A stretch of 64,000 nt of DNA, taken from contig OZ244905.1 of NCBI GenBank assembly GCA_965221695.1, positions 3,136,001-3,200,000 of the forward strand. The letters are read 5' to 3'. This document shows, in pieces, positions 34,122-56,203 of this stretch (its first letter is position 1; every line of letters starts with the position of its first letter). The translations under genes were made by a program, and so were the position numbers. Under the pieces are notes generated by a model that worked only from the letters and a program-made list of their open reading frames with translations, was not told where the DNA came from and searched no databases. Origin of the DNA: Gammaproteobacteria bacterium. Lineage in GTDB: Bacteria; Pseudomonadota; Gammaproteobacteria; Eutrophobiales; Eutrophobiaceae.

Positions 34122-35414
34122 ATGAGGGTGTTATACAGCCTGGCGCTGTACCTGTGCGCGCCGTTGGCGCTGTTGCATCTGCTGTGGCGCGGGAGCAGGA
34201 ATCGCGCTTATCTCGAACGTATCCCCGAGCGTTTCGGTTGGATTCCGAAACCGACCGGCGCCGGACAGCCTGTGATCTGGGTGCACGCAGTGTCGGTGGG
34301 CGAGGTGCAGGCCGCTAGCCTGTTGGTGAAACGCGTGCTCGGCGCCTATCCCGGTTGCCGGGTCGTGTTGACGACCACCACGCCCACCGGCGCGGCGCGG
34401 GCCAGGGCCTTGTTCGCGGGAACGGTGGAGCGCCGTTACCTGCCTTATGATTTGCCTCATGCCGTGCGCCTGTTCCTGCGCCGAGTCAAGCCGCAGTTGC
34501 TGGTAATCATGGAAACGGAGATCTGGCCAAACCTGCTCTACTATTGCAAACAACGCGGCGTTCCCGCGTTGCTGGTCAATGCCAGGCTGTCTCCCGCGTC
34601 GTACCGGGCTTACCTGAGGTTGCGGCGTTTTTCCGCGGCGGCTGTGCAGATGCTGACCCATATTGCAGCCCGTAGCGCCGCGGATGCGGAACGCTTTCAG
34701 GCGCTGGGCGCAGACCCTGCCCGGGTTACGATCGCGGGCAACCTGAAGTTCGACATTGCGACAGAGGATAACCTTATCGATCGGGCGCTGCCGTTACGGC
34801 AAACGCGCGCGGCCGGCCGTCCAGTCTGGATCGCGGCCAGCACCCACGCGGGTGAGGAGGAGCAGGCGCTGGATGCGTTCGACCGGATCCGGCGCTGCAT
34901 TGACAACTGCCTCTTGATTATCGCGCCGCGCCATCCGGAGCGCTTTGACAAGGTGTATGAACTGTGCCGGCGGCGCGGCCTGCATACAACCCGGCACAGT
35001 GGCGCTAACGGCGCGGCGCCAAAGGCTGCGGATGTGTATCTGCTGGATACCCTGGGAGAGCTTCCCCTGTTCTATGCCTGTGCCGGCGTCGCGTTTGTCG
35101 GCGGCAGTCTGGCGCCCGCGGGCGGGCATAATGTGCTGGAGCCGGCCGCGCTAGGTGTGCCGCTGATCAGTGGGCAACACACCGCCAATTTTGCCGAAAT
35201 TATCGAGCTGTTCCGTGGTGAGGACGCGATCATGATTGTTGCGGATGCCGCGCAACTTGCCGCCGCGGTGATCAACTTGCTACAGGATGAAGACTTAAGA
35301 CGCGCCTACGGCCAACGCGGCCGGCGGCTGGTGCGGCGCTACCAGGGCGCAATCGATACTGTCCTGGAATTGCTGGATAAATATCTCCTTGATCATTCTG
35401 CGGGCAAACACTAA
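34122..35414 (+). CDS. waaA: Kdo transferase
   Basis: WVHAVSVGE, ETEIWPN, AASTH.GEE, APRHPER, GGHN.LEPA. Confidence 0.95.
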   Translation: MRVLYSLALYLCAPLALLHLLWRGSRNRAYLERIPERFGWIPKPTGAGQPVIWVHAVSVGEVQAASLLVKRVLGAYPGCRVVLTTTTPTGAARARALFAGTVERRYLPYDLPHAVRLFLRRVKPQLLVIMETEIWPNLLYYCKQRGVPALLVNARLSPASYRAYLRLRRFSAAAVQMLTHIAARSAADAERFQALGADPARVTIAGNLKFDIATEDNLIDRALPLRQTRAAGRPVWIAASTHAGEEEQALDAFDRIRRCIDNCLLIIAPRHPERFDKVYELCRRRGLHTTRHSGANGAAPKAADVYLLDTLGELPLFYACAGVAFVGGSLAPAGGHNVLEPAALGVPLISGQHTANFAEIIELFRGEDAIMIVADAAQLAAAVINLLQDEDLRRAYGQRGRRLVRRYQGAIDTVLELLDKYLLDHSAGKH

Positions 35415-35534
35415 TCTGTATAGGAACTATTGGTTAAGCCAGAGCTTACGGTGATACAGGGATGCGTGCTCTGACAAGTCCTGGATGGTCTTGTTCAGAT
35501 ATTCATATGAATTCATTCAAGACCGGGAGGTTTT

Positions 35535-37850
35535 ATGAACAAACTACGACTGAATAAATACACGATTACCCGCGTGCTCCTGCCGGCCCTGGCAGGTCTG
35601 CTGATATGCTCCGGTAGCGCCCGGGCGCAGATGCTCGAAGAGATCGTGGTCACCGCGCAGAAGCGTTCCGAAGACCTGCAGGACACACCGGTTGCCGTCA
35701 CCGCGTTCACCGGCGAACAACTGCAGCAGGTGGGCGTCGTCGATTCCATCGGGCTGAGTAATGTGGTGCCCAACGTGACTATCGGAACCGAGGATGCCAG
35801 GGACGCAATATTTATCAACATACGCGGCATATCCCAGTCCGAACGCAGGAACGCCTCGGATTCGACCACTGCGTTCTACATGGACGGCGCGCTGGTGCCG
35901 CGCATGTCCGGCATCAACGCCTACTTCTATGATGTTGAGCGTATTGAAGTGCTGCGCGGTCCGCAGGGTACGCTGTACGGGCGCAACAGTACCTCGGGTG
36001 TGGTCAACGTGATCACAAAAAAACCCGACCTGGAAGCGATCGGAGGCGACCTCCAGGTAGGTTATGGCAATTATGATGCGGTTGACGTAAAGGGCGCGCT
36101 GAATGTGCCGTTTTCTGACAGTATCGGCGCCCGCGTGGCGTTCACCTATAATGAACGGGACGGTTACCGGGATAACGGACCGCTGGTTGCCGATGGAGAC
36201 GACTTAGATGATATCGGCGTGCGCGGTCACCTGCTGTGGGATATCGGCGAGTCTACCTCGTTGCTGCTCTCCGCGGATTACTATGAACACCAGGGTGTTG
36301 GCCCGGTAGGGGCACAGGTGGAATGTCCCGACAGCGGCTGTAACATCCCGCTCGCCCCCGATCCTGCCCGCGCCAACCCGCTCAATACGGAAGGCTACCG
36401 CGATAATACGGATACCAATTTCAAGCTCCAACTGGACCACTCATTCCCGTTTGCCGACCTGACCTTCATCGGTTCCTACCGGGATCATGAACGGGATTAC
36501 CTGATGGACACAGACGGCACCGGCGCTTCGGTATTTCTGCCGCCGGCAGGCAGGCTGGTCGCGATCGACACCACTGTCGTGGAGCAGACGGAGTCAGAAT
36601 CTTTCTCAGCCGAGCTGCGGCTGAATTCCAACTCGGACAGCCGCCTGCAATGGATCCTGGGTGGCTTTTACCTGGATGAAGATATCGCCGGTGATTTTCG
36701 TTATCAACCGGTGTTGCCGAACGGTTTGCACCTGAACGTGCAGTTTGTCGACAAGGGTTTCAACGTGGAGTCGTGGGCCGTTTTTGCCAATGCTTCCGTG
36801 GATGTCACCGATCGCTTCACCCTGAACGGCGGTGTGCGTTATACGGAGGATGAGAAGGACAAAGGCGGCGTTAACGACCCCGCCAATCCCACCGCCGGCA
36901 GTTATATGTTAGTCAGTATCCGCGAATTCGGCGCGCCGGTGGCGCCGTTTTTTCCGCGCGCCCAGGTGGCGAATCCCTCCTGGAACGAGGTTACCTGGTC
37001 GTTCGGTTTTGACTGGCATCTGAATGACGACATGCTTGCCTATGTCAAGTACAGCAAGGGGTTCAAGTCGGGCGGTTTCAGCCGCGGCAGCGTGGATCCG
37101 TTGAACCCGAGTGGCGCCCCGAACGTGGCAAACCTGACCGTCTACAACCCGGAACAGGTGCTTGCCAGTGAAGTCGGCCTCAAGAGCACTTTCATGGATG
37201 GCCGCGCCCGGGCGAACCTGAGCGCGTTCTGGTATGACTATTCCGACAAGGAAGAGGCAGTTGTGCGTGTGATCGGCGGTATTCCGACCAATACCGTGAT
37301 CAATGCGGGACAGGCGACCATTTACGGGGCGGAACTGGAGGCGACATTATTGTATGGCGCACACGGCGGGCGCATCGACCTTAACCTCGGCTGGCTGGAC
37401 GCGCAATTCGATGAATTCATCGGCCTCGATGATCCGCTGACGCCCGGCCAGGACAACCTGGATCTCGGCGGCAGCGACTTGGTGAATGCGCCGGACTGGA
37501 ATATCAGCGCCACCTGGGTACCTGCCGAATTGGAAATGCTGAACGGGCGCCTGTATCCTCTGGTCCAGTTTTCATTCAAGTCCAGTTACATTACCCGGCC
37601 CCACAACCAGTCTGTCGACCGGCAGGATTCCTATACCCGCACCAATGCGAGCCTGCACTGGGAATCCGTTAACACAGGCCTGTACCTGGAAGGTTTCGTG
37701 CACAACATCGAGAATAAAGACATCCAGACCTCTTCGTTTTGCCAGCAACAGGTCAACGGCGTCGCGGGAACACCCTTCCCCGGGTTGGGCTGTACTCATA
37801 TGTACCAGCCCCCGCGCACCTACGGGGTGCGGCTGGGATACAGGTTCTGA
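35535..37850 (+). CDS. TonB-dependent outer membrane receptor
   Basis: Signal peptide, EEIVVTAQKR TonB box, plug RIEVLRGPQGTLYGRN, C-terminal PRTYG...GYRF. Confidence 0.93.
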   Translation: MNKLRLNKYTITRVLLPALAGLLICSGSARAQMLEEIVVTAQKRSEDLQDTPVAVTAFTGEQLQQVGVVDSIGLSNVVPNVTIGTEDARDAIFINIRGISQSERRNASDSTTAFYMDGALVPRMSGINAYFYDVERIEVLRGPQGTLYGRNSTSGVVNVITKKPDLEAIGGDLQVGYGNYDAVDVKGALNVPFSDSIGARVAFTYNERDGYRDNGPLVADGDDLDDIGVRGHLLWDIGESTSLLLSADYYEHQGVGPVGAQVECPDSGCNIPLAPDPARANPLNTEGYRDNTDTNFKLQLDHSFPFADLTFIGSYRDHERDYLMDTDGTGASVFLPPAGRLVAIDTTVVEQTESESFSAELRLNSNSDSRLQWILGGFYLDEDIAGDFRYQPVLPNGLHLNVQFVDKGFNVESWAVFANASVDVTDRFTLNGGVRYTEDEKDKGGVNDPANPTAGSYMLVSIREFGAPVAPFFPRAQVANPSWNEVTWSFGFDWHLNDDMLAYVKYSKGFKSGGFSRGSVDPLNPSGAPNVANLTVYNPEQVLASEVGLKSTFMDGRARANLSAFWYDYSDKEEAVVRVIGGIPTNTVINAGQATIYGAELEATLLYGAHGGRIDLNLGWLDAQFDEFIGLDDPLTPGQDNLDLGGSDLVNAPDWNISATWVPAELEMLNGRLYPLVQFSFKSSYITRPHNQSVDRQDSYTRTNASLHWESVNTGLYLEGFVHNIENKDIQTSSFCQQQVNGVAGTPFPGLGCTHMYQPPRTYGVRLGYRF

Positions 37851-38002
37851 ATCCAGTGGGGTTACGCGATGGTCTGCCACGGAGATATCGCTGATCCGGG
37901 AGATGATGCCTGTCAGCGTATCAATGCCTGCGGCATTGATTTTGCCAGAACGTGCCTGTATCGTAGCAGTTTCAGAGACATTAACCAGAGGTTGCTTAGC
38001 TC

Positions 38003-38386
38003 ATGTTGAAACCCATAATAATAATTCTGGCCCTGGCGGCGCCGTCCTTCGCGGCAGCCGCCGGATTTCCTACAGTTGAAACGGTGAGGCAAGTCGTCAG
38101 TTGCATGGCTGAGCTTGGTGGCCAGACTGATGAGAACCTATTGACTTGCGGGTGCCGGCAGGACGAGATTGAAGCCGGGATGAGTTTTGAGGTTTTCGAG
38201 CAGGCCAGTCTGCAGGAACGTTATAACCGCATGCCGGGCAAACGCGGCGGCCTGTTCCGTGATGATAAAATAAGCAGGGAACAACTCAAGCAGTTAAAAG
38301 ACGTCAGGAAGAAGGCCTTTGCCGCATGTCCCGCAGTCAAGAAGGTGATGCGGGCTGATGAGATGAATAAAGGAACCTCTGAATAA
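38003..38386 (+). CDS. Small exported Cys-containing protein next to the quinoprotein cluster
   Basis: Signal peptide; four Cys (SCM, TCGC, AAC). Confidence 0.65.
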   Translation: MLKPIIIILALAAPSFAAAAGFPTVETVRQVVSCMAELGGQTDENLLTCGCRQDEIEAGMSFEVFEQASLQERYNRMPGKRGGLFRDDKISREQLKQLKDVRKKAFAACPAVKKVMRADEMNKGTSE

Positions 38387-38401
38387 GTCCTCAGAGGTCC
38401 C
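38371..38401. repeat. Family A palindrome overlapping a gene end
   Basis: ggaacctctgaataagtcctcagaggtccc; supplies the last codons and TAA of 38003-38386. Confidence 0.65.
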
Positions 38402-38416
38402 AAAAGCAATTCCGGA

Positions 38417-39253
38417 TCAGTTTACCGCAAAATCTGAAGACCAGGCCGCGTTCTTGGTGTCCGTCGCCTCAACAGTCAATATCCCCTTGTCTTTCGGCAC
38501 GAAGAAGAAACGCAGGCTGGGGTCCATACTGATCGCAAAGGTCAGGATTGCCTTCATTACCGGCGCGCCGTTGTAATTCACATTCAGCGTATTGACGAAG
38601 TGCGCGGGAGGATGGAAGTGGGAACCTATCTTCATCGGCTGCAGGCCGGTGATGTTCGGGTGTTTGATCTTCAGTTGCATCAGGTTCGGTTTGCTGTATT
38701 CGACATCGCCGATCATCTTCATCTTCATCATGCCCATGTTGGCAATGGAATCGCCGATGCTCTTGGGCGGCGGCGCGGAGCAGGCGCCTGTTGCCCGGGA
38801 GAAACTCTTGGCCATGTACAGTTCACCGGTATTCAACTCGGCAATGGCGCGCACATAGGTATGATCGTTGATGCGCACACGCATCGCCAGGTCGGCCTTG
38901 CCGCTGGCCGGGGTAAAATCGAAGATCCCTACCAGCGGGACCGGGTTCTTGTCGATGAAAACATGCATGCGCTTGACATACAACTCATCGGTCTGCGGAA
39001 TCCTGGTGTGGATGGTGACCGGGGCGAGCGCCGCATCCTGAGCACGGTATGGCGCCTTGACCTCCAGGATATTCTGCTCGGCGTCTTCGATGATTTCCCG
39101 GTCCTGGAATGTTGGATGGCGCAGGTTCTCCTCCCATGCCTGGTCCGATAACTTTTGTCGCCAGTCATGGGGCATCACGTCCGCAAACAGCGCCGGCGCG
39201 CAAATGAATAATACGGCAACGGATAAAAACGTTTTCATGGTTGTGTTCAACAT
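38417..39253 (-). CDS. Quinoprotein-dehydrogenase-associated fused SoxYZ-like carrier
   Basis: APYRA.DAA..P, ID.NP.P, RA.AE...G.LY, ATGACSAP, HPN.TG.Q, IS.DP..RF; divergent from xoxF. Confidence 0.85.
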   Translation of the reverse strand: MLNTTMKTFLSVAVLFICAPALFADVMPHDWRQKLSDQAWEENLRHPTFQDREIIEDAEQNILEVKAPYRAQDAALAPVTIHTRIPQTDELYVKRMHVFIDKNPVPLVGIFDFTPASGKADLAMRVRINDHTYVRAIAELNTGELYMAKSFSRATGACSAPPPKSIGDSIANMGMMKMKMIGDVEYSKPNLMQLKIKHPNITGLQPMKIGSHFHPPAHFVNTLNVNYNGAPVMKAILTFAISMDPSLRFFFVPKDKGILTVEATDTKNAAWSSDFAVN

Positions 39254-39405
39254 ACGTTCCTCTTTCATTGACGTGGGTAACATTGTTCCTGTTCCCGAAA
39301 ATTACACAGCAAAATACGTTTAAACGGACTAACCGCTAAAGTATACTATATCGACAATAGTAATTCCAAATTCCAGAGATTCAGGCGAATTTCAGTGAAA
39401 TATGC

Positions 39406-39480
39406 TTGACAAGCTCTTAGAATAAGGTGGAATATATGGCTTTAGAGGAAAAGTGCTTGCATAGCACATGAAATTTTCCT
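39406..39480 (+). promoter_or_regulatory. Putative xoxF promoter and palindromic site
   Basis: TTGACA at 39406 with weak -10 (TGGAAT); AGGAAAA-GTGCT-N5-AGCAC-...-TTTTCCT dyad in an AT-rich divergent spacer. Confidence 0.35.
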
Positions 39481-39674
39481 AGACTTGATTGTATTGTGAT
39501 GATATTTTCTGTAATATTCACACTAGATAATAAACGTACACAAGATTTAAGTTGAACGCGGGCATATCGCCCCGATAATTTAACTCTCGGCTATCTTTCA
39601 TGATCTCGAGATAGCGGGGAGGTCAATAAAAATCGAGATCAAACATTTGTTAATTAACAAAAGAGGAGGAGGTC

Positions 39675-41678
39675 ATGAGTAAATTTTCCTTCAGTAAATG
39701 GATAATTGTCCCTCTTGCCCTGTTCATGTCTTTGTCAGCTTTCGCCAATGACGGCGTCAGAGAGTTGATGAAAGACCCGAACTACTGGGTATATCCGGGA
39801 GGCAATTATTGGAACTGGCGTTATTCTGAACTTGATCAGATTAACAACAATAACGCCGGTGATTTGGTGGCTGCGTGGACGTTCTCGACAGGACGCCTGC
39901 AAGGCCATGAGGGAGGTCCGTTGGTCCTGCCGCCCAGTGAGACGGGTCTGGCAACCGATCATCTGTATATTCACGCGTCATTCCCGAATGATGTGTTCGC
40001 GATCGATCTTGAGACCCTCGAGATCACCTGGGACTTCGTGCCCCCGCAGGACGCTGATGCAACCGTTCCCAAGATGTGTTGCGATATCGTGAACCGCGGT
40101 CTTGGCTACAGCATGGGCCAGATTTACCTGCAAGCAGCCGACACCACTTTGTATGCCTTGAACCCGATGGACGGCAGCATTATCTGGCAGACAAAGAACG
40201 GCGCCGACATCTCTGACGACCTGGTTGGTCCCAGCGCTGACGGCAGAGGCTATGGTCCGCATAACGGCATGACCAACACCAATGCCCCGCACCCGATCAA
40301 GGACAAAGTCTTTACCGGCTGCTCCGGCGCCGAGTTTGGTGTGCGTTGCTGGATCGCGGCTTTCAATGCCAGCGATGGCAGCCTGGCATGGCGTGCGTTC
40401 AGCATGGGTCCGGATGAAGACATCCTGTTTGACGAAAACACCACGTCCATGGGGCAACCGGTTGGCGCCGATTCTTCCCTGAAGACCTGGTGTGCGTTCG
40501 ATGCCGAAGTTGGCACCGGTCATAGCACCTGGGGTAAAGAAGCCCTGCGCGCTAATTCCGCTGAAGAGCGTCTCTGCAAAGAGACTTCCGACCAGTGGAG
40601 GATCGGCGGCGGTTCCGTATGGGGCTGGTGGCCTGCCGATTTCGATGAGAACCTGATGTACTACGGCAACGGCAATCCCGGCACCTGGAACCCGGTCGTA
40701 CGTCCCGGCGACAACAAGTGGTCCATGACCATCTTCGCCCGCGACATCGACACCGGTGTGGCACGCTGGGTTTACCAGATGACGCCCCATGATGAGTGGG
40801 ACTACGACGGCGTTAACGAGATGATCCTGGCTGACATGACTGTAAAAGGCGAGGAGAACGTGCCGTCCCTGGTTCACTTTGATCGGAACGGTTTTGCTTA
40901 CACCATGAACCGTAAGACCGGCGACCTGCTGGTAGCTGAGAAGTATGACCCGGCCGTTAACTGGGCAACTCATGTTGACATGAAGACGGGTTATCCCCAG
41001 GTCGTTAATGAGTTCAGCACTCACTTCAACGGCCAGGACGTTACCTCCAAGGACGTCTGCCCTGCAGCATTGGGCACCAAGGACCAGCAACCTGCAGCCT
41101 ACTCCCCGCGTACCGGACTGTTCTATGTGCCTACAAACCATGTTTGTATGACCTATGAGCCTGTCAGCTACGACGCAGGCGGTGTGACCTACGAACAGGC
41201 AGCCGGCAGTTGGTATGTGAATGCCAACCTGACGATGTATCCGGCAGGCCAGGTACTGGGTAACGGCACGACCAACATGGGCAATTTCATTGCCTGGGAT
41301 GCCGGCGAAGGCAAGATCGCATGGTCTATTCCCGAGCGTTGGTCGGTCTGGAGCGGCGTATTGACAACCGCCGGTGACGTAGCTTTCTATGGTACGCTTG
41401 AAGGCTATGCAAAAGCGGTTGATGCCAACAGTGGCAAACTGTTGTGGCAGTTCAAGACCCCGTCAGGCATTATCGGCAACTTCCATAGCTGGGCCCACAA
41501 GGGCAAGCAGTACGTTGGTGTGCTTTCCGGAATCGGTGGATGGGCCGGCGCTGTTGTGGCCATCCCGGTTCTGCGTGACATGTCCGGCGATGCGGCCCTC
41601 GGCGCAGTTGGCGGCTATCGCGCCCTGTGGAACTCCACACGTAACAGTGGCGTGTTGATGGTGTTCAGCCTGCCGTAG
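39675..41678 (+). CDS. xoxF: Lanthanide-dependent PQQ methanol dehydrogenase (XoxF type)
   Basis: Signal peptide, CCD.VNRG, SGAEFG (Glu ligand), GNPG (Asn), PHDEWDYDGVNE (catalytic Asp plus extra lanthanide Asp), CPAALGTKDQQP; strong GAGGAGG RBS; no mxaI nearby. Confidence 0.92.
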   Translation: MSKFSFSKWIIVPLALFMSLSAFANDGVRELMKDPNYWVYPGGNYWNWRYSELDQINNNNAGDLVAAWTFSTGRLQGHEGGPLVLPPSETGLATDHLYIHASFPNDVFAIDLETLEITWDFVPPQDADATVPKMCCDIVNRGLGYSMGQIYLQAADTTLYALNPMDGSIIWQTKNGADISDDLVGPSADGRGYGPHNGMTNTNAPHPIKDKVFTGCSGAEFGVRCWIAAFNASDGSLAWRAFSMGPDEDILFDENTTSMGQPVGADSSLKTWCAFDAEVGTGHSTWGKEALRANSAEERLCKETSDQWRIGGGSVWGWWPADFDENLMYYGNGNPGTWNPVVRPGDNKWSMTIFARDIDTGVARWVYQMTPHDEWDYDGVNEMILADMTVKGEENVPSLVHFDRNGFAYTMNRKTGDLLVAEKYDPAVNWATHVDMKTGYPQVVNEFSTHFNGQDVTSKDVCPAALGTKDQQPAAYSPRTGLFYVPTNHVCMTYEPVSYDAGGVTYEQAAGSWYVNANLTMYPAGQVLGNGTTNMGNFIAWDAGEGKIAWSIPERWSVWSGVLTTAGDVAFYGTLEGYAKAVDANSGKLLWQFKTPSGIIGNFHSWAHKGKQYVGVLSGIGGWAGAVVAIPVLRDMSGDAALGAVGGYRALWNSTRNSGVLMVFSLP

Positions 41679-41709
41679 ACCGAACAAACTTTTCAAAGTT
41701 TGTGACGAT

Positions 41710-41743
41710 ATCCCCGGTATCATTGGTACCGGGGATTTTTTTT
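41710..41743 (+). terminator. Intrinsic terminator after xoxF
   Basis: atccccggta-tcattgg-taccggggat followed by T run. Confidence 0.85.
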
Positions 41744-41806
41744 GAACTTATTGAATGCAAGGCCGGTCATATACTGAAATCTGTGGTGACCGGTTATAGT
41801 TGAAAG

Positions 41807-41870
41807 TCATTGATTTTGACGGCATATCCCTGTACCGTTGCAACCTCTGATTTAATCTGAGGTTCCTTAA
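41807..41870. repeat. Degenerate right part of family A element
   Basis: gtcattgattttg...atccctgta...aacctctgatttaatctgaggttcc+ttaa aligns with 50415-50478. Confidence 0.55.
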
Positions 41871-41901
41871 TAATAATTCAAGATTTAAGAGGATTTGGAA
41901 T

Positions 41902-42369
41902 ATGTATTTGAGAAGTCTTTTTGTTGGTTTATTCCTGCTGGGTTCCATACAGGTATCCGCCCAGCAGATTCATGTGATTAACGCAGAAGCGCGTATCTTC
42001 AACCCGGATGTCATTTATGTACAACCCGGGGATAACGTGAGATTTGTCAACATGACATCCCATGACGCGGTATCGATTAATCAGGTCCCGCTTCCCGACG
42101 GCCAGGTGTTCGAGGGAATGCTACCTGAAGGCACCGAGGGCTGGAAGAGTAGAATGGGTGACGATTTTACGTTGCAACTGGACGTAGAGGGTGTGTATCC
42201 CTATGTGTGCATTCCCCATATCGGCTTCGGAATGGTGGGTGTCATTGTAGTAGGCGAGCCGGTTAACATAGACGCCGCGATGGACGCTGCGAGAGCCAAC
42301 CTTAAGGGTCCCTACCGCCGGCTTATCGGCAAGATCCTCAAGGTGCAACGAGCGGCGAAAAAAGGGTAA
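41902..42369 (+). CDS. Periplasmic type-1 blue copper protein (pseudoazurin-like)
   Basis: Signal peptide, F.P..I.V.PGD.V.F, His (SHD), C-x2-H-x4-M (YVCIPHIGFGM), C-terminal helical tail. Confidence 0.9.
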   Translation: MYLRSLFVGLFLLGSIQVSAQQIHVINAEARIFNPDVIYVQPGDNVRFVNMTSHDAVSINQVPLPDGQVFEGMLPEGTEGWKSRMGDDFTLQLDVEGVYPYVCIPHIGFGMVGVIVVGEPVNIDAAMDAARANLKGPYRRLIGKILKVQRAAKKG

Positions 42370-42374
42370 TAACA

Positions 42375-43241
42375 GTGAAAAAATATCTGCTGGTGTGCTT
42401 GTTGTTGATGCCTGGCGCTTCCGCAATGGCGGTCGATGTCGGAGAAATGACCGTGTTGAAGGTATGCGCCGACCCGTTCATGCTGCCTTTTTCCAATCGC
42501 AAGGAACAGGGTTTTGAGAACAAAATAGCCGAGTTGTTTGCCGAGAAGCTGGGAGTGGACCTGCAGTACGAATTTTTTCCCCAGAGGATTGGCTTCATCC
42601 GCAATACTCTCAGGGCAGAATCCGATTCAGGTTCCGGCTACAAGTGCGACCTGGTGATGAGCGCGCCGGTTAATTTCGAACGGGCTGCTGCGACAAATCC
42701 GTATTATACGTCTTCCTATGCGTTGGTATTGGCAAAGGGGCGGGGCATGGATGATATCACTTCGCCTGAAATGCTGGTCGAAAAGGTTCAAGGCGGTCTG
42801 AAAATAAGGCTCGGCGTCACCGATCGAGGCCAGGACCAGTTCTGGGCGGCCGCGAACAACTTGATGGGGAGTATTGTGCCGTATCAGGGACAACCCGGCG
42901 ACCCCGAAAAGTATCCGGGCAAGACCCTGACCGAAGATATACTTGCCGGGAAAATCGATGCCGCGATTATCTGGGGACCCATCGCAGGCTATTTTGCCCA
43001 AACCATGGAAAGTGGCGAGGATCTTATCCTTCTGCCGTTAACTGATGATCCCACAAATCCCTACCTGAAGTTTACATTTACCGTGGCCATGGCAGTCAGA
43101 CACGGGGAACAGGAATGGCGTGACAAGGTGAACCAACTCATAGCCGAAAACCAGACGGAGATCAACGCCATTATGGAAGATTACGGTGTGCCGTTGTTAC
43201 CGCTGGAGAAAATCGAGATACGGGAAGATGATGATGATTAG
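42375..43241 (+). CDS. xoxJ: XoxJ/MxaJ-family periplasmic binding protein
   Basis: LKVCADP..LPFSN, GFENKIAE, GFIRNTL, CDLV, PYY.S.Y, WGPIAGY, YGVPL. Confidence 0.88.
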   Translation: MKKYLLVCLLLMPGASAMAVDVGEMTVLKVCADPFMLPFSNRKEQGFENKIAELFAEKLGVDLQYEFFPQRIGFIRNTLRAESDSGSGYKCDLVMSAPVNFERAAATNPYYTSSYALVLAKGRGMDDITSPEMLVEKVQGGLKIRLGVTDRGQDQFWAAANNLMGSIVPYQGQPGDPEKYPGKTLTEDILAGKIDAAIIWGPIAGYFAQTMESGEDLILLPLTDDPTNPYLKFTFTVAMAVRHGEQEWRDKVNQLIAENQTEINAIMEDYGVPLLPLEKIEIREDDDD

Positions 43242-43272
43242 CTTCGGCCTCAGGGGACACAGGGCTTGTTTC

Positions 43273-44040
43273 ATGTATAAAGGCTGGCAACTTGCATTTT
43301 ATGCGCTATGCTCTCTGTGGCTGATAGCAGCCGTGCCGGTTGTTGCCGAGGATGACAGTGGGGACGTGGAAGTGAAGGGCGCCACTCTTGGCAGAATGGG
43401 TGACCCCGCTGCAGTAGATCCGAATACCTTTGAGTTTGCCGACGCGGAGGTCAAACTTTGGCTGGATAATCACCTCAGGAACATAGGCAGTCCGGGCCGG
43501 CTCTATTACGACTTCGTCAAGAGCGGGACTTACGAGAAGGGCTTCAGCGATTCCATCTACCTGGATATTCTCAAGCTCAATGAGGATGGCAGCAAGGATG
43601 CGAACCTGGAGTTCTTCACTGCAGAAAGACAGCAGCAACCGCGCCGCGACAACCTGGTCGGCATCACCGGCAACCCGGTGCTGGTCGTATACATGCAGGG
43701 CGACGTGTACGAGATGAACCGGCTGACCAACGGCAGTTGGCGTTATTTCCAGCGGCGTATCAAGTCAGCGTTTGCCGAAGAAGCGAAAGTCGAGCCGGTC
43801 ACCTTTGAATATGACGGTATGGAGATGACCGGCGAAAAAATTTCCATCACCCCGTATATCAACGACCCCAGGCGCAGGCAATTCGCCGAGTTTGCCACCA
43901 AGCTGTACGAGTTCATATTATCCGATCAAGTCCCCGGGAAACTGTACCAGATCAAAACTGTCATTCCGGCAGGCTCACCAGACAGCGAACCGCTGATTGA
44001 AGAGGTGCTGACCCTGCAAAGCGCAGAATTTGCTAACTGA
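43273..44040 (+). CDS. Exported hypothetical protein co-directional with xoxJ
   Basis: Signal peptide, 255 aa, GNPV and PY..DP motifs; start uncertain. Confidence 0.65.
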   Translation: MYKGWQLAFYALCSLWLIAAVPVVAEDDSGDVEVKGATLGRMGDPAAVDPNTFEFADAEVKLWLDNHLRNIGSPGRLYYDFVKSGTYEKGFSDSIYLDILKLNEDGSKDANLEFFTAERQQQPRRDNLVGITGNPVLVVYMQGDVYEMNRLTNGSWRYFQRRIKSAFAEEAKVEPVTFEYDGMEMTGEKISITPYINDPRRRQFAEFATKLYEFILSDQVPGKLYQIKTVIPAGSPDSEPLIEEVLTLQSAEFAN

Positions 44041-44166
44041 CATTTCATTTACATGGATATACAGGATAGACAGGATGTAAAAAATTCTTCTTTATTCGGC
44101 ACAATAACTCTGCAAGAGTGCGTTGCCAAGGAAGTACTGACCAAGTCAGAGATTACCCTGTATGTA

Positions 44167-44202
44167 TTAGGAAGCACTGAGACTTAATCAGAGCTTCCTT
44201 AA
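44167..44202. repeat. Family A palindromic mini-element
   Basis: ttaggaagcactgagacttaatcagagcttcc+ttaa next to the fhcC stop. Confidence 0.65.
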
Positions 44203-44205
44203 TTC

Positions 44206-45027
44206 TCACCTGGCCGTATTGAGCAATACCATGATTTCGCCCTTGCCGTCGTTAGCAAGGTCGCCGGTATAAAGGCGTACTTCCGGGCCGAAATTGCGAA
44301 AGAACCGGTAGCGGCTTCCCATCAGCGACAATTGCTTGAAAAACAGTCGCAGGTATTCCATCTTCAACGCGCCGCAGTCTGTCAGGGTGGCGCCGATCCG
44401 GCTTGGCCGCCTGCCCAGGATGATACTCCCGCGCTTCATCCCGTAGCCGGGCAGCTTGCCGGCTTTGCCCAGGATCAATATCGTGCCGGCAACCATACCG
44501 GAGCCGCTGAAATCGCCCGCATCACCGCCGATCATGATCATGCCGCGCCGCATCCTGTCGCCGATACGGTTTCCGGCATTGCCCCAGACCGTGATCAGAC
44601 CGTCCCGCATCCCGTAAGCGCCGGTGGATGTGCCGGCCCCGATGTAATCGCCGGCGTCACCCTCCACGTCAATCCGGCCCCACTCCATATCACAGCCCAG
44701 CCACTCGCCGCAACTGCCGTTGACTTTGATTGCGCCGCCGCGCATACCGTGGCCGAGATGGCTGCCGCCATGGGCCTTGACGTCGATCTGCCCGCGGGTC
44801 ATCTGCGCGCCTATCCGGGTTACCAGTTCCGTGGTGCGGCGTAACTCGATATGTTCGGGATTTTCCCCGCTGATGGAAAACAGGTCGCCGACCCGGGCGG
44901 GCCGAGCGCCATAGGTGAGTTCGATATCGGCAATATTGTCCGCCGCCGACAGCCGGTCCGGTGTCAGCGCCGACAAGTCCAGCAGCCGCTGAGGTTTTTT
45001 CTTCAGGGTGAAGATCAAGGGTTTCAC
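44206..45027 (-). CDS. fhcC: Formyltransferase/hydrolase complex subunit C
   Basis: LD...L.PD, GxxM.xG.I.V.G beta-helix repeats, GDRMRRG, GDLA..GKGEI. Confidence 0.9.
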   Translation of the reverse strand: MKPLIFTLKKKPQRLLDLSALTPDRLSAADNIADIELTYGARPARVGDLFSISGENPEHIELRRTTELVTRIGAQMTRGQIDVKAHGGSHLGHGMRGGAIKVNGSCGEWLGCDMEWGRIDVEGDAGDYIGAGTSTGAYGMRDGLITVWGNAGNRIGDRMRRGMIMIGGDAGDFSGSGMVAGTILILGKAGKLPGYGMKRGSIILGRRPSRIGATLTDCGALKMEYLRLFFKQLSLMGSRYRFFRNFGPEVRLYTGDLANDGKGEIMVLLNTAR

Positions 45028-45920
45028 CGTAAAATGTCCCTCAGGTGAAAATGGTAAGGTCCCAATTTGCCGCCGTAATTGCCAGCGCCGACTCGATAGA
45101 TGCCCTTGTCGGGTCCGTTTTCGCAGACCGCTTCGATGCCTGCGCGCATGGCCTCGCTGATCGCGCCTTCGCTGAGGCCATCAATGACGATCTCCAGCAC
45201 GGAACCGATCTCTTCGGTGAGCTCACTGTTTACCCGGCCTTTCAGGGTTGGGCAGAACAACTCGTTGGTCGATGCCGGCAAAAACGAGTACTTGGATCCC
45301 ACCTTGGAGCCGGACCCGACGATGCCGCCGGGGAACGTGGTGACTGCGCCTTCCACTGCTCTGATGGCTTTTACCGCTTTTTCACAAGCATTCAGGCCGT
45401 GGCGGGAGGTTTTGGCCATTACCAGGAAGTTGCCGCCACCAATGGCGGGGACCACGCCGGTGGTCTCTTCACACAGGAATTCGCCATGCATCACCGGGAT
45501 GCGCCAGTAGCGGATGCCGCGCAGTATCTTTGAGATCTGGTAACCGTCGCCGAAATATCTCAGGCTTTTGCCCAGGGGCAACATGGTGTCGCTGTGGGTG
45601 CCGGCAAAACAGGCGCTGGTCGCGGTGGTCATTACCGACTGCCCGACGCGCCGGGTAAGCTGGTCCGCCAACTGGGATTTGGACATCGCAAACATGATGA
45701 TCGCCACACCGGGCCTGCCGTCAGGGGTTTCATCCGGCCTGAGCTCCCGTTCGATGTCCGCCTCGCAACCGCAGGCGATCACGGACGAGGCGAAACCGGT
45801 CAGCGAGTTGGCTGCGATATAGGCATACTTCATCGTCATGGCGGTAATGATCAGCCGCGTTGCCTTCATAGGGAAGGCCTCGGCAAAAGTATCATCAATG
45901 CTTACACCGTTAATATTCAT
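45024..45920 (-). CDS. fhcD: Formylmethanofuran:H4MPT formyltransferase (Fhc copy)
   Basis: DTFAEAF, GFA.SVI.CGCEA, TPDGRPG, LRYFGDG, GSKVGSKY, GNYGGKLG. Confidence 0.93.
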   Translation of the reverse strand: MNINGVSIDDTFAEAFPMKATRLIITAMTMKYAYIAANSLTGFASSVIACGCEADIERELRPDETPDGRPGVAIIMFAMSKSQLADQLTRRVGQSVMTTATSACFAGTHSDTMLPLGKSLRYFGDGYQISKILRGIRYWRIPVMHGEFLCEETTGVVPAIGGGNFLVMAKTSRHGLNACEKAVKAIRAVEGAVTTFPGGIVGSGSKVGSKYSFLPASTNELFCPTLKGRVNSELTEEIGSVLEIVIDGLSEGAISEAMRAGIEAVCENGPDKGIYRVGAGNYGGKLGPYHFHLRDILR

Positions 45921-45953
45921 GTTAAGGTATTCTCTGTGACCTCTGTGGCTATG

Positions 45954-47603
45954 TTACTTGCAATCATGTACCAGCAGTGAATGTTGATTACAGGCTTCCA
46001 GCTCGTCTCGGCCGATCTTGAAATTCTCCAGGCTCATGGTCATGTACCTGTCAAAATACTGTTTAAGCGGTTTCTCAATGCCCGCGTCGTAGTCCGGTTC
46101 GACCACGTGAGTGGAGGTGGCCGGGATGGCGCAGACTTTACCGTCCCTGACGCAGAGTTCGCCGCGCTTGAATACGTATTCCGGTCTGCTGAACATGGTC
46201 TCGCGGTTGGCGTCGGGTTGGTACACGGTGATATCCGCGGTGGCGCCGATGCCCAGGTGGCCCAGGTCCCTGAGCCCCAGGCTTCTTGCCGGCGCGGCGC
46301 GGGTGATAATCGCGATCTCGTACAAGGAATATTCCCGGTCGATCGAGGACAGGATGCTGGCATCGGCTGCGTCCTTGTTTATCGTGCCCAGCATGTCGTC
46401 GCGAAAACCCTTGTCCATCAGCAGCCTGACCAGGTGCGGGTAAAAGGTAAACGGCGCGCCGTTAGGGTGGTCGGTGGTCATGAACACGCGCCAGGGATCA
46501 TCGACGAGCAGGAATATTTCGAGGCCGATGCACCACTGCAACGCGTTGACAAAATTCTTGTCCCGGTAACGGAACGGCACAACACCGCAGCCTGCCTCGC
46601 ATTCAATGTCCATGCACATCCATTTTTTCGGATGGGCATGAACATGCCCCTTATGCTGTATCATCGTGTCCGCCGACGCGGTGACCGTCTGGCCGAACAT
46701 GACCTGGCCGACATCTATCGACAAGTTTGCGTTCCTGTTCACTGCCTCCGCTACCTGCGCGGCCGCGGACGAGAATTTTCTGTCGCCCTCCTGCCCGTAG
46801 CTGTGGAATTGCACGTGGGTCAGGTGCACCGGTCTGCCCTCGGCCGCAGCAATGGTATCGAGTGTTGTCCGGAAATTGCCGGGCACGCCCAGGTTGCAGG
46901 CATGCACATGCAGGGGATGGGGTACGCCGGTAGCATCCAGCGCATCCAGCAATGCGGACAGAATCGCCCGCGGCGTCAGTCCGTAATGTTTGTTGGATTC
47001 ATCCAGGTCCAGTTTTCTCTGGTTGAACTTGAACGCGCTGATCCCACCCGGATTGACCACCTTGACTCCCATCGCCCGGGTTGCCTGTATGGTCCAGGCC
47101 ACGTAATCGTTAACAAGCTGCCGGTCCTTATTGCGTTCAAGCAGGCGCAACAGGAAGTCATCATTACCCAGCAGAACATAGGCGCCCGTGTCCAGCATGG
47201 GCGTATCGGCCATTTCCAGGTGCGAGTGACGGGCGTTCATCGGCATCATCGCCGGTTCGAAACAAGAGGTATAACCCATTTCGGCATAGCGGTAGCCGGT
47301 GACGAAACTGCTTGGGGCGATAGCGCCAGATCCCGAACGCAACAGCTTGTCCGATGCGGTGATATTATTGCTGTGGTCATCCGCCAGCAACATCCTGGCG
47401 ATGTTGACCTTGCCGCCGCCGATATGGGTGTGGATATCGATACCGCCCGGCATGACGATGCGTCCGTCCAGGTCCACCACGCGGTCGATCCTGCTTGCGC
47501 GCGCCGGATCGGCGAGCCTGCCGTCCTTGATATACAAGTCCATGATGCTGCCGTCTATCCCGTTTGTCGGGTCGTAGACCTTGCCGCCTTCGAGCTTGAT
47601 CAT
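45954..47603 (-). CDS. fhcA: Formyltransferase/hydrolase complex subunit A (amidohydrolase)
   Basis: DIHTH, KVVNPGG, HVH, THVQFHSYG, TTDHPNG; ATG 47603 overlaps the fhcB stop. Confidence 0.92.
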   Translation of the reverse strand: MIKLEGGKVYDPTNGIDGSIMDLYIKDGRLADPARASRIDRVVDLDGRIVMPGGIDIHTHIGGGKVNIARMLLADDHSNNITASDKLLRSGSGAIAPSSFVTGYRYAEMGYTSCFEPAMMPMNARHSHLEMADTPMLDTGAYVLLGNDDFLLRLLERNKDRQLVNDYVAWTIQATRAMGVKVVNPGGISAFKFNQRKLDLDESNKHYGLTPRAILSALLDALDATGVPHPLHVHACNLGVPGNFRTTLDTIAAAEGRPVHLTHVQFHSYGQEGDRKFSSAAAQVAEAVNRNANLSIDVGQVMFGQTVTASADTMIQHKGHVHAHPKKWMCMDIECEAGCGVVPFRYRDKNFVNALQWCIGLEIFLLVDDPWRVFMTTDHPNGAPFTFYPHLVRLLMDKGFRDDMLGTINKDAADASILSSIDREYSLYEIAIITRAAPARSLGLRDLGHLGIGATADITVYQPDANRETMFSRPEYVFKRGELCVRDGKVCAIPATSTHVVEPDYDAGIEKPLKQYFDRYMTMSLENFKIGRDELEACNQHSLLVHDCK

Positions 47604-48835
47604 CCGGGTTGGTCCGTGAGTTGTGAGATGATGCGGTTGATGATCCCGGCGGCGCTCTGCGAACCGGAATCTCTGAGCTTTTTCAGGGGCAGGCTGATGA
47701 CTCCGTCCGTCCGGAACAGCGTGCCGGCATGATCGATGCCCGGGATGCCTGTCGGAATGAAAACGTCGGCGCTGTTCGCGCCGGCACGAAACGGGGATAG
47801 AATCACGGTTGGGACGCCCAGGGATGGAGGCGCTTCCTCGGTAAACCCCGATATCCACAACAAGCTGTCTATGTCCGCCGTGTGTGCGCCGGCGCCGGAC
47901 GGACGTCCATCGTTGAAATTCAGCGCCGCCGGGAAGCCGGTCTGCCAGGTGGCGACGCTGTGCCAGGCTGCGCCGCCATTGCTGCCGCCCAAGGATAAAC
48001 CGGCAAATCGTTGTTTTGCGTTCAGGTCGCGCAACAAGTCCTGCGCCGAACCGATGACCAGGTCGGCCTGGTCCGCCGGGAGGGCTGCCGCGTTCCATAC
48101 CAGTACGCCGTATTGTGCGTCTCTGACCAGGTCGGCAACCTGTTCCAACTTACGCGCTTTTGGTGCGGATATAGGACTGCAATCCGGCAGTTGCCGGCCG
48201 GTCAGTCGGGCGCGCAGCAGCGCCAGGTTTTCGGCAACCTCATCGTTGCGGCCGGAAATGATGAGGCGCTCATGGCCGTCGCAGCCAGCCAGTTCAGTCC
48301 GCCCCGGCCGGCCCAGGTAGGCCAGTTTTCTGCCGGCCGCAGCAAACAGCGAATGGGGTGTGTTGATGAAGCGCTCGATGAACCGGGGATAAGCGCCGGT
48401 CACGTTATTACCGATAAAGATAATCGTGTCCGCCCGATTTTTTACTTCGGCGAGAGTGGTCGTGATCCCGCCCCGGGACTGCAGCGCTTTCAGGTTACGC
48501 CAGGCATGACCTTCAGTGGAATGGCGTAGCGCGGCATCTGTCTTTTCGGCCAGTTGCAATGCTGCGCGCAAGCCGTTAACGTCTGTGCCAAGACCCGCAA
48601 TCAGCGGTTTATGGGACTTATGCAGGAGTTTTGCCGCGGCGCTGATGGCCCGTTCCACGGTCGCCGGCGCGCCTTTTATGGCCGCTTCAGGCATCGGCAG
48701 CGGGGCGGAAAAGCCCTGCTTGGCAAGTCGGCACGCATTCGCGGAGACCCTGAGTTGCCGCCTCTTTGTGCGCAGCGTCAGGTCATCGCATAACAGGCTG
48801 CAAAACGGGCAGGTTACATTTACTGCTGCTTGCAT
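47600..48835 (-). CDS. fhcB: Formyltransferase/hydrolase complex subunit B (no Mo/W Cys ligand)
   Basis: CPFCSLLCDD, TTLAEVKNRAD, WQTGFP, PGIDHAG..FR.DGV; no Cys where FwdB has SVCHG. Confidence 0.88.
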   Translation of the reverse strand: MQAAVNVTCPFCSLLCDDLTLRTKRRQLRVSANACRLAKQGFSAPLPMPEAAIKGAPATVERAISAAAKLLHKSHKPLIAGLGTDVNGLRAALQLAEKTDAALRHSTEGHAWRNLKALQSRGGITTTLAEVKNRADTIIFIGNNVTGAYPRFIERFINTPHSLFAAAGRKLAYLGRPGRTELAGCDGHERLIISGRNDEVAENLALLRARLTGRQLPDCSPISAPKARKLEQVADLVRDAQYGVLVWNAAALPADQADLVIGSAQDLLRDLNAKQRFAGLSLGGSNGGAAWHSVATWQTGFPAALNFNDGRPSGAGAHTADIDSLLWISGFTEEAPPSLGVPTVILSPFRAGANSADVFIPTGIPGIDHAGTLFRTDGVISLPLKKLRDSGSQSAAGIINRIISQLTDQPG

Positions 48836-50199
48836 CAATCCAGCAAGGCCAACATTTCGCTGACACGGGTGTACTTCTCCCTGGGTTTGCCCGCGGATTC
48901 GCCTCGGGCAATCTCGGTATCATCGATTTTTTTCCAGTCTGTAAAGCTGATGTGGCGGATATTGCGCCGGTCGAGAAGTTCGTAGCAGGCTTCAGCGCCG
49001 CGCCGCTGTTTACCGTCGTCCAGCCGGTCCAGGTCTTGCAGCAGCATCCCTACTGTTTCCACGCTGTCTGCCTTGTTGGTGCCGATGATGCCGGTGGGGC
49101 CGCGCTTGATCCACCCGGCGGTGTACAATCCCGGTTCCACCGTTCCGTCCCTGGTGATCCTGCCTTGATCATTGGAGAAAACCCCGCGGGATTCGTCGAA
49201 CGGCACGCCGGGCATGGGCACGCCGTGGTAGCCGATACTGCGAAAGACAATGCCGGTATCCAAGGTAAATGTTTCTCCGCTACCTCTTGCCGATTGCCGA
49301 AACGCCTCTCCCGATAAGCTGTTTTTTTCTATCAGCAAGCGTTCCACCTTGCCATCGCCGAGTATTTCTCTGGGGCTCTTCAGGAAAGTGAAAATACAGC
49401 GCCTGTCCTTGGCTGTCTCCCGGTCGGCAAATCCGCAGAACAGGTCATAGATTTTTTTGTTGCCGGTATTTCCCAGTTCAGCTTCGCTTTCCGGGTTCAG
49501 CGCCAGTTCGCCCGCGTCTATCACCGGGTCACAGGTGTCCAGGACACCGAATTCCTTCAGCTCCTTGGACGTGAACTTGGCTTGCGCCGGCCCGCGGCGG
49601 CCAATGACGTAGATATTTTTTACCTTGCTCTCGGCCAGCGCTTCCAGTGCATGTGCAGCGATATCCGTATGCTTCAATTCATCAACGGTCTTGGCCAGGA
49701 TCCGGCTCACGTCGGCGGCCACGTTGCCCTGGCCGATTATGACGGCGGTTTCATGGGACAGGTCAAACTGCCTGTCGCGATAATCGGGATGGCCGTTATA
49801 CCAGCCGACAAATTCCGTTGCCGTGTAACTGCCCTGCAGGTCTTCACCGGGGATGCCCAGGCGTCGGTCGGTTTCAGCCCCGCAGGTAAGAATCACCGCG
49901 TGGTGGGCGGCGCGCAATTCGTCAATGCTGATGTCCTTGCCCGCAGTCACGTTTCCGAGATAGTTGAATTGTTCCGCCTCGGCAAGCCTGGCGTAGACCT
50001 TGATAGCCTGTTTCAGTTTCGGGTGATCGGGCGCAACGCCGCTTCTTACCAGGCCATATGGTACAGGCAAGCGTTCGAACATGTTGATGCGGACCTGGAT
50101 ATCGGCTTTGATCAGCGCGTCAACCGCGTAAAATCCACTGGGGCCGCTACCGACGATAGCGACTGTCAGCGGATTGTCTGGTGTTCCTAATCGAGTCAT
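48835..50199 (-). CDS. Ferredoxin-NADP+ reductase (FprA/adrenodoxin-reductase family)
   Basis: GSGPSG, GL.R.GVAPDH, WYNGHP, GQGNVA.D, GRRGP.QAKFT.KEL, GWIKRGPTG.IGTN. Confidence 0.92.
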   Translation of the reverse strand: MTRLGTPDNPLTVAIVGSGPSGFYAVDALIKADIQVRINMFERLPVPYGLVRSGVAPDHPKLKQAIKVYARLAEAEQFNYLGNVTAGKDISIDELRAAHHAVILTCGAETDRRLGIPGEDLQGSYTATEFVGWYNGHPDYRDRQFDLSHETAVIIGQGNVAADVSRILAKTVDELKHTDIAAHALEALAESKVKNIYVIGRRGPAQAKFTSKELKEFGVLDTCDPVIDAGELALNPESEAELGNTGNKKIYDLFCGFADRETAKDRRCIFTFLKSPREILGDGKVERLLIEKNSLSGEAFRQSARGSGETFTLDTGIVFRSIGYHGVPMPGVPFDESRGVFSNDQGRITRDGTVEPGLYTAGWIKRGPTGIIGTNKADSVETVGMLLQDLDRLDDGKQRRGAEACYELLDRRNIRHISFTDWKKIDDTEIARGESAGKPREKYTRVSEMLALLD

Positions 50200-51761: not shown

Positions 51762-51842
51762 GTCAGAAATCCGTACGAGGCACTAAGTAACTTCTGATTA
51801 ACTCAGCGGTTACTACGATACAAGGATGTTTCCCTGATTTCA

Positions 51843-54364: not shown

Positions 54365-54403
54365 TATTATCTGCCTTCCATCAACTATTTCAGCCTGCGC
54401 CGG

Positions 54404-55768: not shown

Positions 55769-55858
55769 GATTGCTCCTCATGGGGTCAGACCGGCCCGGA
55801 TAGCGCTTTGGCCTACGCAAAATCAAGGTTAAGAAACCTCTGTCGATTATTAAGCATT

Positions 55859-56203
55859 CTAACTGATTTTTTCCACCTGGACAGAAATATGTTTGGACAG
55901 CGGCATGCCACTGCCAGCGGTGTCACTTTCCATCAGGCGGCTGGATGTGGGGCCGTAGGCAATGAAAATCATGCCTTCAGGCAGGTCGCCGGCTTTTTTT
56001 GAGACGCAGGTAACAACAACTTCTCCCACATGGTTTTTCAGCCGCAGTTTATCGCCATTGCTGAAACCGAGGCGAGCCATCTCGTCCGCATTGATTTCAA
56101 CGGTAGAAGTAACCTCCCGGTACTCGTCACCCAGTTTTCCCTTGTTTAGGGAGGTCCCCTGTTTACTGGACCGCCCGGGTATCAATAACATGGTTTCCGG
56201 CAT
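55859..56203 (-). CDS. fwdD: Formylmethanofuran dehydrogenase subunit D (molybdopterin dinucleotide-binding)
   Basis: L..GR...QG.....GK...Y, G.IFI.YGP....L...T.G.GMP..K; directly upstream of fwdB. Confidence 0.85.
   Translation of the reverse strand: MPETMLLIPGRSSKQGTSLNKGKLGDEYREVTSTVEINADEMARLGFSNGDKLRLKNHVGEVVVTCVSKKAGDLPEGMIFIAYGPTSSRLMESDTAGSGMPLSKHISVQVEKIS

Follow-up and report, generated by a model that had tools for sequence, protein, structure and literature searches.

A pseudoazurin-type cupredoxin in the place of XoxG in a conserved gammaproteobacterial xoxF cluster

Methanol dehydrogenases of the MxaF/XoxF kind pass their electrons, in every characterized case known to us, to a dedicated c-type cytochrome. 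The cluster considered here, in which a pseudoazurin-type blue copper protein (cupredoxin) is encoded between xoxF and xoxJ, lies in a window of 64,000 nucleotides (positions 3,136,001-3,200,000 of contig OZ244905.1, assembly GCA_965221695.1; gene coordinates below are window positions) from a gammaproteobacterial genome that is complete in a single contig of 3.54 Mb. With the canonical xoxF-xoxG-xoxJ cluster (Methylorubrum extorquens AM1 type, structures 6OC5 and 6ONP; 6DAM from a gammaproteobacterial methanotroph) it shares the enzyme family, XoxJ and the gene order, and its XoxF retains the canonical D-Y-D lanthanide motif together with the Cys-Cys pair and the Glu ligand. In contrast, where a CxxCH cytochrome would be expected the middle gene encodes a heme-free type-1 copper protein, the genome is without XoxG, and the XoxF adds four insertions and a cysteine, Cys216, that are absent from 20 other XoxF/MxaF sequences. 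The cluster thus appears to work like xoxF-xoxG-xoxJ while failing the feature that defines it, the cytochrome partner. According to one account, no electron acceptor is apparent for the XoxF5 enzymes of Gammaproteobacteria (PMC6277846). The arrangement described here is real and conserved, and we propose, at a probability of roughly 0.6, that a dedicated pseudoazurin stands in for XoxG as electron acceptor of XoxF, a transfer to which the position of the gene points.

Some periplasmic quinoproteins have a dedicated cupredoxin as electron acceptor, its gene lying in their own cluster; examples are methylamine dehydrogenase, served by amicyanin, and aromatic amine dehydrogenase, served by azurin. 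These couples likewise join a one-carbon (C1) or amine quinoprotein to a clustered cupredoxin; their enzymes, however, contain tryptophan tryptophylquinone and not pyrroloquinoline quinone (PQQ) with a lanthanide, and amicyanin belongs to a different cupredoxin subfamily, which ranks well below the pseudoazurins against the model of the cupredoxin studied here. The quinohemoprotein alcohol dehydrogenase of Pseudomonas putida HK5, re-oxidized by azurin, is a further PQQ alcohol dehydrogenase that reduces a blue copper protein, but its electrons first pass through a fused heme c domain, which our XoxF does not possess, as the locus contains no CxxCH motif. An exchange between copper and heme carriers is also known from plastocyanin and cytochrome c6 of cyanobacteria and algae, soluble carriers that serve the same partners interchangeably; as a rule both are encoded in one genome and exchanged according to copper supply, whereas in the lineage considered here the swap is fixed in the genomes. 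In Paracoccus, pseudoazurin is reported to supply electrons to denitrification enzymes, cd1 nitrite reductase among them (PMC12848317). Our cupredoxin has the same fold, ligand spacing and C-terminal helices, and the genome also encodes a cd1 nitrite reductase (NirS), but the gene belongs to the xox cluster and does not lie among denitrification genes. A hypothetical cupredoxin-fold protein is part of a lanthanide transport cluster (PMC6850437). Full-text literature searches, with subscription-only papers outside their reach, returned no title or abstract in which XoxF or another PQQ methanol dehydrogenase is paired with a cupredoxin, and no characterized enzyme of this kind is known to pass its electrons to copper.

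The initial annotation of the window, drawn from the letters alone, had read positions 39675-43241 as xoxF, a secreted cupredoxin with a full type-1 copper ligand set and, 5 bp further on, xoxJ, with a terminator and a repeat behind xoxF and no CxxCH cytochrome gene in 35-44 kb. The open reading frame (ORF) listing and the family scans bear out its gene content and coordinates (Table 1), and the ligand set, the spacing, the hairpins and the missing cytochrome gene all held up as well. The dehydrogenase scores 588.3 bits against TIGR03075 (cut-off 480.05), and its best solved relatives are the XoxF structures 6DAM (709 bits) and 6OC5 (677 bits), followed by the XoxF-type 4MAE (510 bits), eleven MxaF-type large-subunit chains (443-477 bits) and 7O6Z (438 bits), while ethanol dehydrogenases of the PedH/ExaA type do not exceed 244 bits. 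The lanthanide and PQQ sites are intact: W375-D376-Y377-D378-G379, C135-C136 and E220 are invariant in 21/21 orthologues, and D376-Y-D378, C135-C136 and E220 are also kept in all 52 cupredoxin-linked XoxFs; the MxaF-like control (L094) has Ala at the position of residue 378. Judging from these residues and scores, the enzyme belongs to the lanthanide-type XoxFs, more precisely to the XoxF5 kind, with lanthanide-dependent methanol oxidation as its predicted function.

The product of the middle gene matches PF00127, and its copper site is intact, the type-1 ligands H54 and C103-x2-H106-x4-M111 being invariant in 23/23 orthologues and aligned with the ligands of solved pseudoazurins (best sequence match 3TU6, 2.3e-19). 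Its AlphaFold model, with a predicted local distance difference test score (pLDDT) of 87.5, ends in the two C-terminal helices typical of pseudoazurins (residues 123-133 and 136-154), and the 27 best matches of the model in the PDB are all pseudoazurins, with target-normalized template modeling (TM) scores of 0.74-0.81; 4BWU and 1ADW lead the list, and amicyanin structures come far lower. The N-terminus, MYLRSLFVGLFLLGSIQVSA followed by QQ, resembles a Sec signal peptide by eye, and model confidence (pLDDT) is low over the first 20 residues. Eleven residues, INQVPLPDGQVF, are inserted after the His ligand (window 42058-42093, cupredoxin residues about 59-70); this insertion is found also in the closest relatives within the genus and is missing from the rest of the clade and from the solved pseudoazurins. 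A conserved ribosome-binding site, AAG[AG]GGA, precedes the cupredoxin ATG, and xoxJ starts 5 nt past the cupredoxin stop codon, the two ORFs overlapping or abutting in relatives. The third gene, with 241.2 bits against TIGR03871 (cut-off 212.15) and XoxJ 6ONP as its best solved relative (1.9e-39, against 6.2e-11 for MxaJ), is by these profile and structure matches xoxJ, the accessory protein of XoxF.

Window 35000-44200 is free of the CxxCH motif when read in all six frames. Across the 3.54-Mb genome no match was obtained with TIGR03874 (methanol-related c-type cytochrome), the sole match to TIGR03872 (MoxG) reached 30 bits and fell on a 329-codon open frame holding a 301-residue di-heme CcoP-like ORF, and TIGR04494 (PedF) returned only the heme domains of two quinohemoprotein alcohol dehydrogenases, with no stand-alone PedF cytochrome. 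As a positive control TIGR03874 was run against 300 genomes of the class and gave five matches, three of which (L063, L064 and L066, the last from a genome flagged unpublished) adjoin XoxF and/or XoxJ and score 95-160 bits. Since true XoxGs beside XoxF score in this range, the curated cut-off of 161.75 is unusable as a yes/no criterion; score ranges were therefore compared, and a hidden Markov model (HMM) of our own was built from the five class-level cytochromes, whose best match in the source genome is again the CcoP-like ORF, at 45 bits. None of the 121 genomes of the family reaches 58 bits on TIGR03874, and none of the 20 genomes of the genus has any match to it (E <= 0.001). Heme proteins are many in the source genome, including cd1 NirS, cbb3 subunits and small c-type cytochromes, among them L040, L041, L044 and L045; apart from the CcoP-like ORF, the small c-type cytochromes resemble c', c4, SorB-like or generic class I proteins. 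By all these profiles the genome is without XoxG, MxaG or a stand-alone PedF cytochrome.

With the cupredoxin as query, a homologue was found in 35/36 genomes of the family; the order xoxF-cupredoxin-xoxJ was kept in 26/30 relatives' loci and cupredoxin-xoxJ in 29/30. A wider scan of species representatives gave 80 loci, every one in a genome of uncultured Gammaproteobacteria or in a record labelled as such; the cupredoxin is followed by xoxJ in 68 of them and has xoxF upstream as well in 58, and nine of the ten cupredoxin-xoxJ loci without xoxF upstream lie on contigs that break off no more than 451 nt before the cupredoxin gene. No match to the XoxG HMM was present in any of these 80 loci. 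Gene order is maintained while cupredoxin identity drops to about 41%, and a second family (G050) also has xoxF-cupredoxin-xoxJ. In one genome (G005, loci L111/L142) some 2.2 kb are inserted between xoxF and the cupredoxin gene. For comparison, an even sample of 400 genomes from the phylum contained 28 XoxF-like loci outside the family, and in 20 of them a XoxG-type cytochrome comes immediately after xoxF, with xoxJ behind it, within the fetched flank, in 14/20; one of the remaining loci has xoxJ directly after xoxF, one is MxaF-like and six have neither. A cupredoxin was encountered in 0/28. As XoxG fills this place in 20/28 other loci and a cupredoxin in none, the cupredoxin sits precisely at the XoxG position, which it has taken over in an arrangement conserved far beyond chance. 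The initial annotation had named two outcomes as speaking against its idea, a bona fide xoxG elsewhere in the genome and a cupredoxin position not conserved in relatives. The source genome yielded no such gene (no match with TIGR03874, 30 bits with TIGR03872, 45 bits with our own HMM), and the order recurs in 26/30 and 58/80 loci.

The dehydrogenases that go with the cupredoxin form a group of their own. In a maximum-likelihood tree built from 72 sequences, all 52 XoxFs linked to a cupredoxin fall into one clade with a Shimodaira-Hasegawa-like approximate likelihood ratio (SH-aLRT) support of 100 and a stem length of 0.36, so that the label requires a single change. The clade carries insertions at residues of about 85-96, 177-194, 273-305 and 497-510, near conserved active-site segments. 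The first (+8 residues, after GPLVL), the second (+5 to +21 residues, after K-N-G) and the fourth (+5 to +7 residues, the E-P-V-S-Y segment) occur in 52/52 linked sequences, and the third, which adds as many as 31 residues and brings in the Cys273/Cys301 pair, in 49/52; none is found in the 20 other XoxF/MxaF sequences, in which the second site is extended by +3 at most. Cys216, four residues before the lanthanide-binding Glu220, shows the same distribution (52/52 against 0/20). XoxFs of the family without an adjacent cupredoxin in G026 (L211) and G035 (L214) lack insertion 2 and Cys216, and that of G035 also lacks insertion 3. The surface of XoxF may co-vary with its carrier. Net charge and isoelectric point (pI) are uninformative, because the charges of mature XoxFs (mean -24 for the cupredoxin type and -10 for the XoxG type) overlap widely (-36 to +2 and -42 to +2) and the mean pI is alike for cupredoxins (6.7) and XoxG domains (7.1).

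Such a long branch, with four insertions close to conserved active-site segments, in a genome encoding three PQQ alcohol dehydrogenases besides XoxF, might also speak for a substrate other than methanol, the cluster being then a general lanthanide-dependent module for alcohol or aldehyde oxidation in which the cupredoxin would be the acceptor in a different physiology. We consider this improbable, as XoxF structures outscore the ethanol-type enzymes by far (709 and 677 bits against at most 244) and the cluster stands beside fae, mch, two fhc/fwd sets and tetrahydromethanopterin (H4MPT) biosynthesis genes. The extra cysteines of the clade (Cys216 in 52/52, Cys273/Cys301 in 49/52) invite another thought, namely that the cupredoxin and XoxJ serve the maturation or redox upkeep of XoxF (Cys135-Cys136, the clade cysteines, PQQ, activation) and not its catalytic flux, with which the tight coupling to xoxJ, a XoxF accessory gene, and the retention of cupredoxin-xoxJ-orf284 in an assembly in which no xoxF was found (G001) would agree. 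An invariant and complete type-1 site on a pseudoazurin fold is, nonetheless, the hallmark of a diffusible electron carrier, XoxF would be left without a recognizable acceptor in the genome, and the full-text searches turned up no precedent, so that a maturation role appears very improbable to us.

The electrons of methanol thus probably pass to copper in this lineage, as far as gene content and order can tell. The periplasmic XoxF, with PQQ and a lanthanide, would oxidize methanol to formaldehyde, and the type-1 Cu(II) of the pseudoazurin would re-oxidize the reduced PQQ in two one-electron steps, docking presumably on a XoxF surface remodeled by the clade-specific insertions. The reduced Cu(I) protein would then diffuse to a cbb3 oxidase, or to an oxidase with a cytochrome c domain fused to subunit II, and could reduce cd1 nitrite reductase too where this is present, while formaldehyde would be handled by the products of the adjoining Fae/H4MPT/Fhc genes. 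We lean slightly toward the fuller version of this proposal, by which the enzyme would be the first PQQ/lanthanide methanol dehydrogenase with a type-1 copper acceptor, the surface of the clade would be remodeled for docking, by the four insertions and by new cysteines close to the lanthanide-binding Glu, and the first step of electron transfer would be free of heme. The saving of iron that the initial annotation had suggested would at most be a possible consequence, heme proteins being still numerous in the genome. As for a service to nitrite reductase alone, NirS is encoded in 4/36 relatives of the family and the cupredoxin in 35/36, which makes a role of the latter solely as NirS donor unlikely.

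Several observations weigh against XoxF as the dedicated client of the cupredoxin. The protein reaches 81 bits against the TIGR02375 pseudoazurin equivalog, below its cut-off of 109.85, and is for this reason called here pseudoazurin-type and not a member of the curated family. It is the only PF00127 protein of the source genome, and so may double as a general periplasmic carrier. Behind xoxF, a 12-pair hairpin with a T-run at 41710-41736 resembles an attenuator or an intrinsic terminator and is flanked by two smaller inverted repeats (41684-41703 and 41842-41864), and both hairpins in 41684-41736 are kept in 8/8 aligned loci of the genus with compensatory changes in the stems; given this conserved terminator-like structure, the cupredoxin gene is operonic with xoxJ and orf284 and not demonstrably with xoxF, and the three genes may form a separately regulated or attenuated unit. 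Two relatives (G023 and G026) have the order orf127-SoxYZ-xoxF-xoxJ-orf284, with merely 230-340 nt from xoxF to xoxJ and no carrier gene in between; G026, 95% complete, encodes no PF00127 protein whatever, and G023 encodes three, all elsewhere. The two XoxF copies of G023 (L212/L213) keep all the insertions despite having no adjacent cupredoxin, and since the XoxF groups were gathered via the cupredoxin and the relatives are not independent, the co-variation is a lead and not a statistic. Conversely, G001 (L106/L144) keeps cupredoxin-xoxJ-orf284, with no XoxF at E <= 1e-100 in the assembly. A longer paralogue of about 200-230 residues, 48-58% identical, is present in 12/80 relatives' loci (long-leader pseudoazurins of L154, L156, L157, L159-L161, L163, L165, L168, L169, L171 and L172), and G040 has a cupredoxin copy of 38% identity immediately before three ORFs that resemble bc1-complex genes by eye. 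Together with a locus in G035, these copies suggest that pseudoazurins also act as general carriers in these lineages.

The same observations could be accommodated by a cupredoxin that works as a general periplasmic shuttle, carrying electrons from bc1 to the terminal oxidases or to nitrite reductase, and is merely encoded beside xoxJ, XoxF using another carrier: it would feed an unrecognized small cytochrome c, or reach the cupredoxin through such a cytochrome. A sole PF00127 protein, the hairpin parting it from xoxF, the xoxF-xoxJ pairs of G023 and G026, the paralogues with their housekeeping neighbors (L160, L161), the G040 copy before presumed bc1 genes and a genome that encodes several small c-type cytochromes besides NirS and cbb3 subunits are all compatible with it. 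Such a shuttle would, however, hardly be expected at the exact position that XoxG holds in 20/28 other XoxF loci, in an order kept in 58/80 loci, with close translational spacing to xoxJ (5 nt here, overlap or abutment in relatives) and next to XoxFs that form a separate clade with private insertions; moreover, no small cytochrome of the genome resembles XoxG, MxaG or PedF, and NirS is restricted to 4/36 relatives of the family. On balance a purely general shuttle, the main alternative, seems unlikely to us, although it deserves to be kept in mind, and the two roles are compatible, so that this explanation overlaps with the pseudoazurin as acceptor of XoxF.

The paralogue belongs to a second carrier locus which, depending on the genome, is occupied by a XoxG-like cytochrome c, by a long-leader pseudoazurin or by the two together (further entries are L065, L123 and L118). 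Where annotated (L160, L161), the neighbors of the paralogue are an M20 peptidase, a redoxin, a hexapeptide transferase, spermidine synthase and gidA. G050 has a XoxG-like cytochrome beside a redoxin and spermidine synthase, similar to the neighbors just named, and G035 a XoxG-like cytochrome and a cupredoxin together, adjoining a 471-residue ORF sized like the M20 peptidase. As G050 also carries the cupredoxin-type cluster, it is a counter-example to a genome-wide exclusion of XoxG-like cytochromes by such clusters. Queries with M20 peptidase, speE and speA gave nothing at 1e-10 in the source genome, in which the second locus is accordingly not conserved. A second locus of this kind, in which a pseudoazurin takes the place of a XoxG-like cytochrome, may point to copper carriers replacing heme carriers across the lineage.

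Table 1. Coordinates of the xox cluster and adjoining features in the window
Feature	Position	Strand	Basis
TonB-dependent receptor	35535-37850	+	Pfam Plug and TonB_dep_Rec_b-barrel
orf127, small, familyless	38003-38386	+	ORF listing
SoxYZ-like carrier, quinoprotein-dehydrogenase-associated	38417-39283	-	TIGR04557; Pfam SoxY and SoxZ
xoxF, PQQ dehydrogenase, 667 residues	39675-41678	+	TIGR03075
Two hairpins 3' of the xoxF stop	41684-41736	+	Inverted repeats
Pseudoazurin-type cupredoxin, 155 residues	41902-42369	+	PF00127
xoxJ, periplasmic binding-protein-like	42375-43241	+	TIGR03871
orf284, familyless; probable start 43273	43186-44040	+	ORF listing
fhcC/D/A/B-like set	44206-48838	-	Family scan
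Second fwd/fhc-like set	50955-56203	-	Family scan

Further genes accompany the three discussed so far. Transcribed divergently from xoxF, the gene for a SoxYZ-like carrier (215.5 bits against TIGR04557, cut-off 140) is found upstream in 40/80 species-representative loci, and the XoxG-type clusters L064 and L066 share with our cluster both this gene and orf284. The small orf127, with an N-terminal hydrophobic leader and several cysteines, matches no Pfam or NCBIfam family, and many relatives, G026, G023 and G029 among them, have a homologue at the equivalent place before the SoxYZ-like gene. For orf284, too, no Pfam or NCBIfam family was found and the PDB sequence search gave noise only; from its probable ATG it encodes 255 residues with an N-terminal hydrophobic leader. 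It follows xoxJ in 65/68 loci having cupredoxin then xoxJ, as well as in clusters without cupredoxin (L211, L213, L215, and L066, which is of the XoxG type), and this distribution suggests a fourth, so far undescribed component of xox modules.

As fae, mch, fhc/fwd and H4MPT biosynthesis genes adjoin it, the xox cluster is part of a C1 (H4MPT) island, with beta-RFAP synthase, mch and fae on the plus strand beyond the second fwd/fhc-like set; pqqC and pqqE are encoded in the genome, which makes the methanol oxidation system complete in other respects. This second set comprises full-scoring subunits C, D (the formyltransferase), A and B (512 bits, cut-off 328) together with a FwdD-like gene, and in its composition resembles a genuine formylmethanofuran dehydrogenase accompanying the hydrolase complex. 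The TonB-dependent receptor on the other side exceeds the cut-off of no specific NCBIfam model, and its synteny with the cluster was seen in 1/80 loci, the fetched flanks being too short to reach its position; that it is tied to the cluster, for example in lanthanide or PQQ uptake, would be only a guess. Both quinohemoprotein alcohol dehydrogenases (G000:C1:1623194-1631791 and 2752060-2758380) adjoin, as XoxF does, genes with TonB-dependent-receptor-like N-termini, which hints at a receptor-coupled supply of cofactor or metal. A fourth, divergent PQQ dehydrogenase of 601 residues (24237-26039, minus strand) scores 449 bits, against a cut-off of 480 for the methanol/ethanol family, and has neither a heme domain nor xox-like neighbors.

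A pseudoazurin in the partner slot, in a widespread and uncultured gammaproteobacterial lineage and in a genome without XoxG, provides a testable candidate for the acceptor of gammaproteobacterial XoxF5. If it is confirmed, bioenergetics would gain a new quinoprotein-cupredoxin couple, and the annotation of xox clusters would change, since those of the cupredoxin type would otherwise be read as acceptor-less. The insertions specific to the clade would then point to a docking surface on XoxF, and the use of lanthanide, copper and iron would be tied together in the turnover of methanol.

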